Positions 5,101 through 8,100 of a stretch of DNA of 64,000 bases are shown in pieces; positions within the stretch are counted from its first letter, which is position 1, and every line of letters starts with the position of its first letter. The position numbers and the translations under genes are program-made. Below the pieces are notes generated by a model. It was not told where the DNA came from. It saw only the letters and a list, made by a program, of their open reading frames with translations, and did no database searches. Origin of the DNA: Bugula neritina (taxonomy: Eukaryota; Animalia; Bryozoa); the NCBI GenBank assembly GCA_964035545.1, contig OZ037766.1, forward strand, positions 7,864,722-7,928,721, given 5' to 3'.

Positions 5101-8100
5101 ATCAACTTCCTTTCTGTTTCCCTGGTGATACAATTACATAGAAATAGTTCAGTGATTATTTCAACATGACCAGGGGGTCGCGTTTAGAACCAATATAGTT
5201 AATTACAGAATCCCTACTAATATGTATACTATCATCCACAAATTTACAATAGCTACGTATTTTTAATTTGAATACTAATACTGTTATATTTTCCAGATTT
5301 AGGGTTGATGTGCCACCAAGAGAGTCTATTTATCACTAGAGAAACTTCACCGTGTTAAGTCGAGTAGATATCGTTATATTTTAATACAAGAATACATAAT
5401 AAAATCTAAGGTACAACAGTAATGATACGCACATCTATTTAATTTACAGCACTATCCTCAACTGAGCTAGTAGCGCGAAGCTGCTACTACTACTCATAAA
5501 ACAGCCTAGCTAATTGGCTAATACATTGTTCCGGGTCAATACGCAACCTTGCGTATTGTGTTGCTGGTAGCTCCACGAGCCACCACACTGCCCCCTCCAG
5601 CAGAAAGCCCTCTTTCTGATAAAAATAAAATTCACATAAAAAAACGTATACTTCGTTGGGGGGGGGGGTAAGAGAACAGTATAAAAGTATATACAAAAAA
5701 AAACAACAACTGATAAAATATACAGGTATATATAACGTGCACAATATGTAATAAGTAAGAGAAGGTCCTATCTACATGTAGAGTACGTGCCACCATAACG
5801 GTAGGGAATGCCACAGAGAGGTAGGGGAAGAGTAGTATGGAGTTGGAGATAGACTCAAGTTAACTGCGGGCCGCACGCTTCATGCGTTTAATAGACTCCT
5901 GTAAATATTTGAGTTCACTGGATGCAGCCTGCACCCGTGGGGCCAGTCTGTACACTTCTTGCTCCAAGTCGTGTGCCCTAGCTTCTACTTCACGTAGGTT
6001 GCGGGCCCAGGGGGACGAGCGAGAGGAAGTCGGCTGTCTGTGTCTTTTCCGCTCCGAGGATGGAAGGGGAGGAGGGAGTGTATACGCATTTGTGTCTACC
6101 CTCTGTAGTACGACACGAGGAAAGGTATGCGGCATGCGTAGAGGACTGTGAGGTGGAGAGTTAGTAGACTGTGTAGGTTTATCTGCGGCTCCAGAGATGA
6201 TGGGTCGCGGGGAAGGGAAGCCTTGCTCCAGGCGAGATAGCCGAGCTGAGTCAGTGATGAGTGGTTTGATGGCGTTGAGAAAGGCAGGATAGGATGATTC
6301 GTCTACTTCATAGACATGCCCTTGATAACACTGCATAGTACGTTGGTGCCGCAATAGGTAATCACGATTGTAGCTATATTCTCCGCAAGGGCAGAAAGTG
6401 GTGATGTAGTGCTGCGGCAAGTGTACTTTTAGTCTGCGGTGGGTTGTGAATCGCTGTTGGCAGAGGTTGCATTCACGATTACTCTCACCTCCTTGATGGG
6501 TCCTGATTTCTCTCTCTGTGGCAGGGGTAATCCAGTTGGAGGTTGCTTCCAACTGGGGTGGCAGTTGCCTGGTTGTAGGAGTTGTTGGGGCCGGCTCTGG
6601 GTCCCACGCCATCTTTAGAGAAGGCATGCCCGGAGAGACGGGCGCGAGTGTGTCTACAAAAGTAGAATTATTGTTAGATCGCGGTGGATCTTTACAACAT
6701 AATTCTAGTGACTGTCGACCGTTGCTAGCCTGAGAGTCACAGCTTTTGGAATGCACTCGAGGAACTGATGAATCATGTGTGGACTGACCAAGAACAGTGT
6801 CTAGCTCCAGGTCTAACAGACCGTCGGCCATTACAGTGTCTTCATCGTCATTCACATGAAACGTGGTTCCCAGTAATTCTGATTCAATCTGCTGAATTAG
6901 TTCAGAATTTACTGGCATCGAGCCCGTTTCCATGAATAGGAATACAAGACTTATACTGGCTTACCTGGGAACTCGGTATTAATGTCCATACTCAACGTTC
7001 TTGGTAAGGTTGGAGCTGGTTGTGAGATACGTCTGCCTTTGGCGATGTCAGCATAAGAAAAGGCTGAGCATCGTTTCTGAGGCACGAGGTCGGAACTATT
7101 TGCTTTACGCGCATTAATTCCTCCCACTATTCCGCCCTCGCAAAAGTTGATATTTGCGTGGGGTTCACAACTCCAACATTTTATCGTACGGTTGTCCCCT
7201 AGACTTTCATGTGCGCCGCTTCTAATGCAGTCACATACGAAGTCTTTTAAATATGGTGGGGGTTTCCTCGTACGCTGTCCCCTTTCTAGGGGGGGTGACA
7301 CGCTTGCCGGTTCGTTAGTAGGGGCCTCTAATGGCGTCTCTACTTCACCGTTAGCGGTCACCTCTTCTTGTTCTCCGGATGGAGCCCCTCCCTCCGTGGG
7401 GGTTTGCACTTCCGGAACCGGTTCGGTTTCTGGAAGTGATGGAATTAGACTTGGCGGTGGCGGACACGCTTCTGTTGACAAAAGCTGCCGCTCCTCTCTC
7501 ACCAAGTTTTCTTCCCGCGGTATGACCACTTCGTATTCAGGTCCATGCCGCCGTCGCCCGCGCGTTGTTGTCTGCCTCCTGGGCTCTAACAACGGGGGGG
7601 CTTCTCCCACTCCGTCGGGGCTAGCCCAATACGGTTTCAAGCGAGACTCATTCGGGATAGACACCTGTCCTGAGCGCTCGATCTTGTACGTATGATTGGG
7701 CATAGCCTCGACGACCACGTAGGGGCCTACGAACTTAGGCTTCAGTTTATCAGCCTGTCCGCGACGCCTACGGTAATTGACCATCCACACCTTATCTCCC
7801 GTTTGATAGAGAGGTGGTTCATCGGAATCTTCGTGCCGCACCTTCCACTGCCGTTGGCGCAGTATCTCGTGTGCGGCCTTCATCCGTTCCACTAGTTCAC
7901 TGGCATACTCGTGAACCGAGTTGTCTTGCTCTGGAACGTGATAGGTGAGATGGTCAGGGACACGAGTCTCTCTCCCGAGCATCAAGAGGTTTGGGGTCTC
8001 ACCAGTACTGGTGTGTGGGGTGCTACGGTATGCACGCATGACTTGCGGCAACACCGTATCCCATTCCTCTTGACCTCGTCCAAGGAGGAGACTCCGGAGT

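Follow-up and report, generated by a model that had tools for sequence, protein, structure and literature searches.

The window analysed here, a 64,000-nt stretch of the Bugula neritina genome (GCA_964035545.1, contig OZ037766.1) in which all positions below are counted, comes from an AT-rich animal genome and carries two Ty3/Gypsy LTR retrotransposons on its minus strand, referred to here as A (5280-12724) and B (13734-23857). Both have paired LTRs, a short target duplication and the domain order PR-RT-RH-IN, and the RT is nearest to Ty3 among PDB structures (Ty3 RT 3e-96, runner-up 5e-60). A and B share 72% identity over 6020 aligned bases. The 5' LTR of A (12425-12724, minus) has 300 nt identical at 300/300 positions to the 3' LTR (5280-5579, minus), with a 4-bp target duplication; the LTRs of B (23583-23857 and 13734-14004, both minus) match at 99% over 246 nt. 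Neither copy is intact. The gag-pol region of A (6951-12405, minus) changes frame between gag and pol, near 11625-11760, and has two stops within the integrase core (8280-8282 and 8172-8174). That of B (18062-23527, minus) runs in one frame, carries an in-frame stop between RT and RNase H (20669-20671) and ends at a TGA (18062-18064). The third ORF of B is interrupted by an element of about 2.55 kb with terminal inverted repeats (14903-17448), bordered by an apparent TA duplication and containing no ORF of at least 120 aa. The LTRs of A are identical despite several disabling lesions; probably a copy that was already defective inserted recently, or the pattern is due to the assembly.

Both elements sit in sense orientation inside one intron of about 20 kb (24910 to 4833, minus) of a host gene whose exons join stop-free across it and give weak TPH-domain matches; we take this gene to be CFAP53-like. 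The strong splice sites of A and B, described below, could disturb its splicing. Elsewhere in the window, host exons match Pribosyl_synth, CD225, Peptidase_S26 (below cut-off), EF-hand and UFC1 in Pfam, the regions concerned being 561-1333 (plus), 41620-41805 (plus), 44617-44874 (minus), 49800-52500 (plus) and 54905-56673 (minus). Long TA-rich and TAATAC/TAATAG repeat tracts occupy 12740-13730, 23860-24430 and 27320-27850; a TA-rich repeat is the insertion site of B, and sequence like it lies beside both ends of the element.

Behind pol, both elements carry a third ORF. ORF3 of A (5860-6933, minus) encodes 357 aa comprising an acidic disordered N-terminus, a zinc module (residues ~121-245), a basic stretch and a coiled coil (308-356), and its counterpart in B spans 14366-17996 (minus) including the insertion. 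An AlphaFold model built from 22 sequences leaves residues 22-118 disordered, folds ~121-245 with confidence and ends in a long helix at 308-356; the zinc module alone, without an alignment, gives a poor model (pLDDT 42). The module contains a C2H2 finger of the form C-x2-C-x12-H-x3-H (C155, C158, H171, H175), present in 65-68 of 69 alignment rows, and a second, atypical cluster (C181-C183-H196-C202). Two distant relatives, P0115 and P0146, have two tandem copies of the module. What kind of protein is this? Pfam C2H2 stays below its cut-off for A and is sub-threshold or marginal among the relatives scanned, and likeness to C2H2 proteins (SALL, ZBTB) and to bZIP proteins (C/EBP) is weak in sequence and in fold (E 0.011 or worse). 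A closer look at bZIP gave weak PDB sequence matches to C/EBP-beta and MafG (E 0.03-0.4) and generic coiled-coil fold matches with Z of at most 5.7. Fold searches of PDB and BFVD gave no match at E 0.001 or better, and a wide fold search was filled by coiled coils. Matches in the Atlas were unnamed or generic C2H2 look-alikes. ORF3 has no Pfam env family and no hydrophobic TM run, so that an envelope of the errantivirus type is not seen. It looks like a transcription factor, and from its layout a nuclear regulatory protein is predicted. The family is sizeable: a profile search returned 315 clusters (50% identity) at E <=0.001 and 127 at 1e-10, without names or context.

How could ORF3 be expressed? 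The earlier note had placed a conserved spliceosomal intron across the start of ORF3 in both elements, and the donor and acceptor positions and the branch-point motif that it gave are exact. The candidate optional intron of A (6654-6964, minus) is 311 nt long, with its donor GT at 6964, a CTAAC branch-point motif at 6673-6677 (minus) and the acceptor AG ending at 6654; it contains an ATG at 6933, called here the second ATG, and 93 codons of ORF3. In B the candidate (17711-18027, minus) is 317 nt long, with its donor at 18027, CTAAC at 17734-17730, the acceptor at 17711 and the second ATG at 17996. Phase 1, claimed for both, is correct, as the ORF spans 8171-6964 and 6960-6653 are both 1 mod 3. 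The sequence has the features of a U2-type intron: GT-AG ends, a U1 match, a branch point within the usual 18-40 nt upstream of the acceptor, a pyrimidine tract and host-like strength. For calibration, 14 donors and 14 acceptors were taken from two host genes in the window, with the frames of the joined exon sets checked, and acceptors were scored with a matrix of the 14 host acceptors. The element donor matches U1 at 8/9 positions, against 5-7 in all 14 host donors of the window, and ranks 1/191 among the GT sites common to A and B at aligned positions. The acceptor ranks 1/227 among the shared AG sites, and its scores of 8.8 (A) and 8.6 (B) lie at or slightly under the low end of the host range, which starts at 8.8; in B it failed a strict filter because of an extra AG directly after the branch A. 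A second shared acceptor (6730/17787) was dropped as it is in phase 0. By our own arithmetic, the chance that the top donor and the top acceptor follow each other in the right order, at a distance of 311 nt and with a common phase, is roughly 0.05. On the antisense strand the best shared sites come close behind (donor 7 vs 8; acceptor 7.7 vs 8.4). GC3 is 0.35 in the intron vs 0.61 in pol. On neither strand does the intron have an alternative reading frame that stays open across it in both A and B, and RNA-fold z-scores along the region dip slightly below zero in scattered windows without revealing a clear element common to both.

Another feature lies directly in front of the donor. In A, an ATG with A at -3 opens a stretch of 8 codons plus 1 nt that ends at the donor (6965-6989, minus), and in B the same stretch begins with the ATG at 18052 (18028-18052, minus). 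The earlier note had offered such a Met-x7 mini-exon as one possible start, and this option gains support: the Met is kept 25 nt 5' of the donor in both elements, and the Met-to-donor spacing of A is repeated in the relatives P0080, P0081, P0107, P0118 and P0170. P0080, P0081 and the more remote P0107 show the unit Met-x7-[G/S]-K. In P0118 and P0170 a long ORF3 begins in frame at the mini-exon Met, which lies 19 codons ahead of the second start position; this identifies the Met as a pol-independent start of ORF3. These two relatives have D-K instead of G-K, so the donor GT has likely been lost in their lineage, and acceptor-like residues remain; this counts against an indispensable donor. Among 42 related pol C-termini (near-duplicates kept, none dropped), the residues of all 18 that extend as far as the donor allow a GT at that point, with two different frames represented. 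Conservation of the donor, on which the earlier note had staked its intron, holds for these 18 pol ends and probably fails in the D-K lineage, where the kind of loss that it had named as contrary evidence is likely seen. The donor itself contains a TAA (6961-6963 and 18024-18026, minus) which in A and B shares the ORF3 frame and precedes the second ATG by 9 codons; in 15 relatives it is the pol stop. On unspliced RNA the mini-exon of A and B is a short upstream ORF of 12 and 14 codons, respectively, ending directly before the second ATG.

The codons inside the candidate intron are themselves constrained. The acidic part of ORF3 had been described as kept open, and this is borne out by protein selection on codons 1-45 between A and B (dN/dS 0.17, Fisher p 8e-6). 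At codons 79-94, which hold the branch point and the acceptor, pS drops to 0.24 and dN/dS is 1.0; the dip has p 0.0002 vs downstream ORF3 and p 0.06, not significant, vs the pol baseline. Synonymous divergence between A and B is 0.75-0.96, near saturation, 3' of the acceptor (5863-6653) vs ~0.55 in pol (6951-10403), a contrast for which recombination or codon bias are candidate causes. In an alignment of 70 related proteins with A and B (P0058 excluded), 54 rows reach the acceptor. Asp is found there in 51/54 rows, and the residue preceding it (L26/V16/S11/I1) is always compatible with YAG. Column conservation is 0.96 at residues 85-91, 0.87 up to the acceptor and 0.59 directly after it; it is 0.81-0.87 across the whole intron-coded part (0.81-0.82 further up) and so is not confined to the signals. 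Several of the more remote relatives differ in the residues at the branch site, and in the most distant ones the acceptor/branch motif is missing and acidic N-terminal motifs are kept. Many relatives are near-duplicates or decayed copies, and they were chosen for long ORFs. No DNA of relatives was found in viral contigs, metagenome contigs or prokaryote genomes, and the family tests therefore rest on back-translation; 34 loci from a degenerate pattern were chance matches, and the best tblastn hit was not below E 0.07.

Upstream of the mini-exon, integrase extends ~80-100 residues past its usual C-terminal motif to a conserved SYAD-x-x-K-x-RR (6990-7289 in A, 18065-18367 in B, minus). The pol tail of A behind the integrase C-terminal motif (6990-7289, minus) is a candidate internal promoter region: its pS between A and B is 0.39 vs 0.55 in pol (p 0.016, uncorrected) and differing stops are tolerated, which together fit a cis element, for instance an internal promoter. 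The pol tail yielded no identifiable promoter element. An upstream acceptor feeding the mini-exon is unlikely, the best acceptor shared in the pol tail scoring 0.2 where the host range starts at 8.8.

What, then, do these signals do? We see an even chance that ORF3 is a separate accessory gene, without any link to integrase, that would be made in a long form when the intron is kept and in a short form when the mini-exon is spliced to the zinc-finger half. Its message would be subgenomic, probably starting in the pol tail from an internal promoter, a start suggested because the tail has no good acceptor. With the intron kept, translation from the second ATG would give the long form with the acidic N-terminus; as the mini-exon is then a short upstream ORF before that ATG, ribosomes would have to reach it by leaky scanning or re-initiation. 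With the intron removed, a short form would begin at the mini-exon Met and continue directly into the zinc-finger half. According to the model, the acceptor maps to disordered sequence ~25 residues before the zinc module, so that removal would spare the zinc module, the basic stretch and the coiled coil. To go by architecture, the long form may act in the nucleus as an activator-like regulator of the element, with the short form as its counterpart lacking the activation-like region.

The acceptor could also have another partner. Both elements have a phase-1 donor, GTGAGC, shortly after the gag ATG: in A (12345-12393, minus) the ATG is at 12393 and the GT at 12350, 43 nt on, and in B (23485-23521, minus) they are at 23521 and 23490, 31 nt apart. 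This donor, absent from the earlier note, is in phase with the ORF3 acceptor in 2/2 elements and, to judge from the sequence, could serve it as an env-type partner. It is a somewhat unlikely alternative, compatible with the two-form reading, that the acceptor is served mainly by this gag donor, giving an env-type message with a short Gag leader on the zinc-finger half, the downstream donor being minor or kept for U1 binding. A phase-1 GTGAGC in both elements despite otherwise poorly aligned gag starts argues for it, as do a U1 match of 6/9, typical of a host donor, and the acceptor-like residues retained by P0118 and P0170, where the downstream donor is likely lost. However, the gag donor ranks 11/381 among GT sites in A and 17/313 in B, the two are not aligned column to column, the comparison covers two elements and the string may just code for Gly-Glu; moreover, the stronger donor at 6964/18027 and the Met 25 nt before it are left unexplained. 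If the gag donor alone were used, the product would be an ordinary env-type message with an unusual cargo.

Could there be no splicing at all? ORF3 would then always be long, and the motifs would be by-products of coded residues or belong to another nucleotide-level element. The protein selection on the intron-coded codons is consistent with this, and so are the near-top shared sites of the antisense controls, the distant relatives that have acidic N-terminal motifs without the acceptor motif, and P0118 and P0170, in which the mini-exon is in frame with the long ORF3 and the donor likely lost. This explanation is quite unlikely, and two points speak against it: the top donor and acceptor stand in order and in the same phase, with the rough chance of 0.05 given above, and the donor string persists whichever frame pol is in, so that no shared peptide can account for it.

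The headline claim of the earlier note was that splicing of genomic-length RNA joins integrase to the zinc-finger protein, which would require pol to be open up to the donor. Does the family show this? In the 42 pol ends, continuity in the frame of the mini-exon Met, as in a chromovirus-like C-terminal fusion of integrase to an added domain, occurs in 3, two after an apparent frameshift and one via read-through of the stop of its subfamily. Another 15 run through the mini-exon in the other frame and stop on the donor's own TAA, 18 stop earlier (16 of them within 12 residues of the SYAD motif, and P0073 and P0103 exactly as B does), and 6 are uninformative, ending or shifting frame further upstream. 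Thus 33/36 informative pol ends either terminate no further than the donor or belong to another frame, and the fusion is not a family trait. The open pol frame at the donor that the earlier note described in both elements is found in A alone, where it extends from 8171 to the donor downstream of the two integrase-core stops. For the TGA of B the earlier note had weighed decay against a preference for the mini-exon form, and decay falls because P0073 and P0103 share it; the relation of the pol frame to the donor is not conserved, B shows a family state and A is the exception. Neither copy in the window is able to make the integrase fusion. Protein-level constraint on pol appears to end at SYAD-x-x-K-x-RR, with synonymous A-B changes in the motif. 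Read-through of the donor TAA from pol into ORF3, in frame in the 15 relatives that stop there, was also considered; the frame classes to which A and B belong preclude it, and the 42 pol ends include no such product. In two distant ORF3 relatives, P0160 and P0233, a single unspliced ORF combines the zinc module with a motif resembling the integrase C-terminus, and in P0187 a pol-tail-like stretch continues into a long ORF3. These three may be unspliced fusions in some copies or lineages, with deletions or frameshifts possible, and P0160, P0187 and P0192 could be copies altered by deletion or frameshift. A conserved integrase-zinc-finger product is very improbable: the open frame of A, the 3/42 relatives that share it and the few single-ORF cases speak for it, while the remaining pol ends, the limit of pol constraint, the stops in the integrase core of A and the stop of B before the mini-exon speak against it.

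Returning to ORF3 as a separate gene with a long and a short form, the conserved splice signals, the selected long acidic form and the mini-exon option of the earlier interpretation all find support, and the integrase fusion is what has to go. A more elaborate version would be a switch like that of foamy viruses, with a promoter in the pol tail, an activator made from the retained-intron message, a spliced dominant-negative partner dimerising with it via the shared coiled coil and the gag donor as a third, env-type route; we hold this fuller scheme to be unlikely.

Gypsy elements are usually regarded as consisting of little more than gag and pol, and a regulatory accessory gene has been worked out in few of them, CERV being the clear case. 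Grande, a Gypsy element, reportedly has an accessory gene, with a non-envelope ORF3 as a separate unit. How new, then, is the arrangement proposed here? The earlier note knew of no Gypsy example of a regulated accessory-gene system, but a spliced accessory gene is already known in Cer1 CERV of C. elegans: passages of PMC10309623 describe gag-frame exons joined to a 3' ORF with no obvious homology outside nematodes. The setting of a spliced accessory 3' ORF in a Gypsy element would be common to both; CERV uses a gag-frame splice, whereas here the candidate intron is internal to ORF3, and those passages describe no optional intron inside the 3' ORF of Cer1. In errantiviruses and Oikopleura Tor elements, as parts of 10.1101/2023.08.03.551782 and PMC4402516 report, env is expressed as a third ORF via a splice whose donor lies close to the start of gag, or from a promoter internal to pol (Tor3b). 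That ORF3 is a membrane glycoprotein, whereas here it is a soluble protein with a zinc module and a coiled coil, and the acceptor lies 93 codons inside the ORF. Bdelloid LTR elements have captured non-env ORF3s (GDSL, DEDDy, TM, coiled-coil) as separate units, according to sections of PMC5408684, and their Gypsy members resemble A and B in having a non-envelope ORF3 as a separate unit; the words 'zinc' and 'intron' do not occur in the main text of that paper. An ORF3 of this type is also absent from the relevant passages of PMC13524379, PMC8220671 and PMC11963269. In the literature covered, with most subscription papers, supplements and Repbase-type records outside its scope, no Gypsy element was found to be described as having a zinc-finger ORF3 that contains an optional intron. 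Spliced Gypsy accessory genes are thus already known, and what was not found in print is this ORF3 protein family and its internal optional intron.

A functional parallel lies among true retroviruses. Foamy virus Bet keeps the N-terminus of Tas and changes frame; unlike Bet, the spliced ORF3 would lose its N-terminus and retain the frame of its C-terminal part. The tas/bet unit of foamy viruses is transcribed from an internal promoter, and its unspliced message gives an activator and its spliced message another regulator, as PMC13220597 describes. The separate-gene reading of ORF3 would work in the same way, with two products of one internal pre-mRNA, the promoter and the function being here proposals and the foamy virus being a true retrovirus. 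In a sizeable protein family, the splice signals of A and B are placed so as to drop the acidic N-terminus, and if the two isoforms are real, they would make ORF3 a splice-controlled regulator within a retrotransposon, in parallel to the complex retroviruses.
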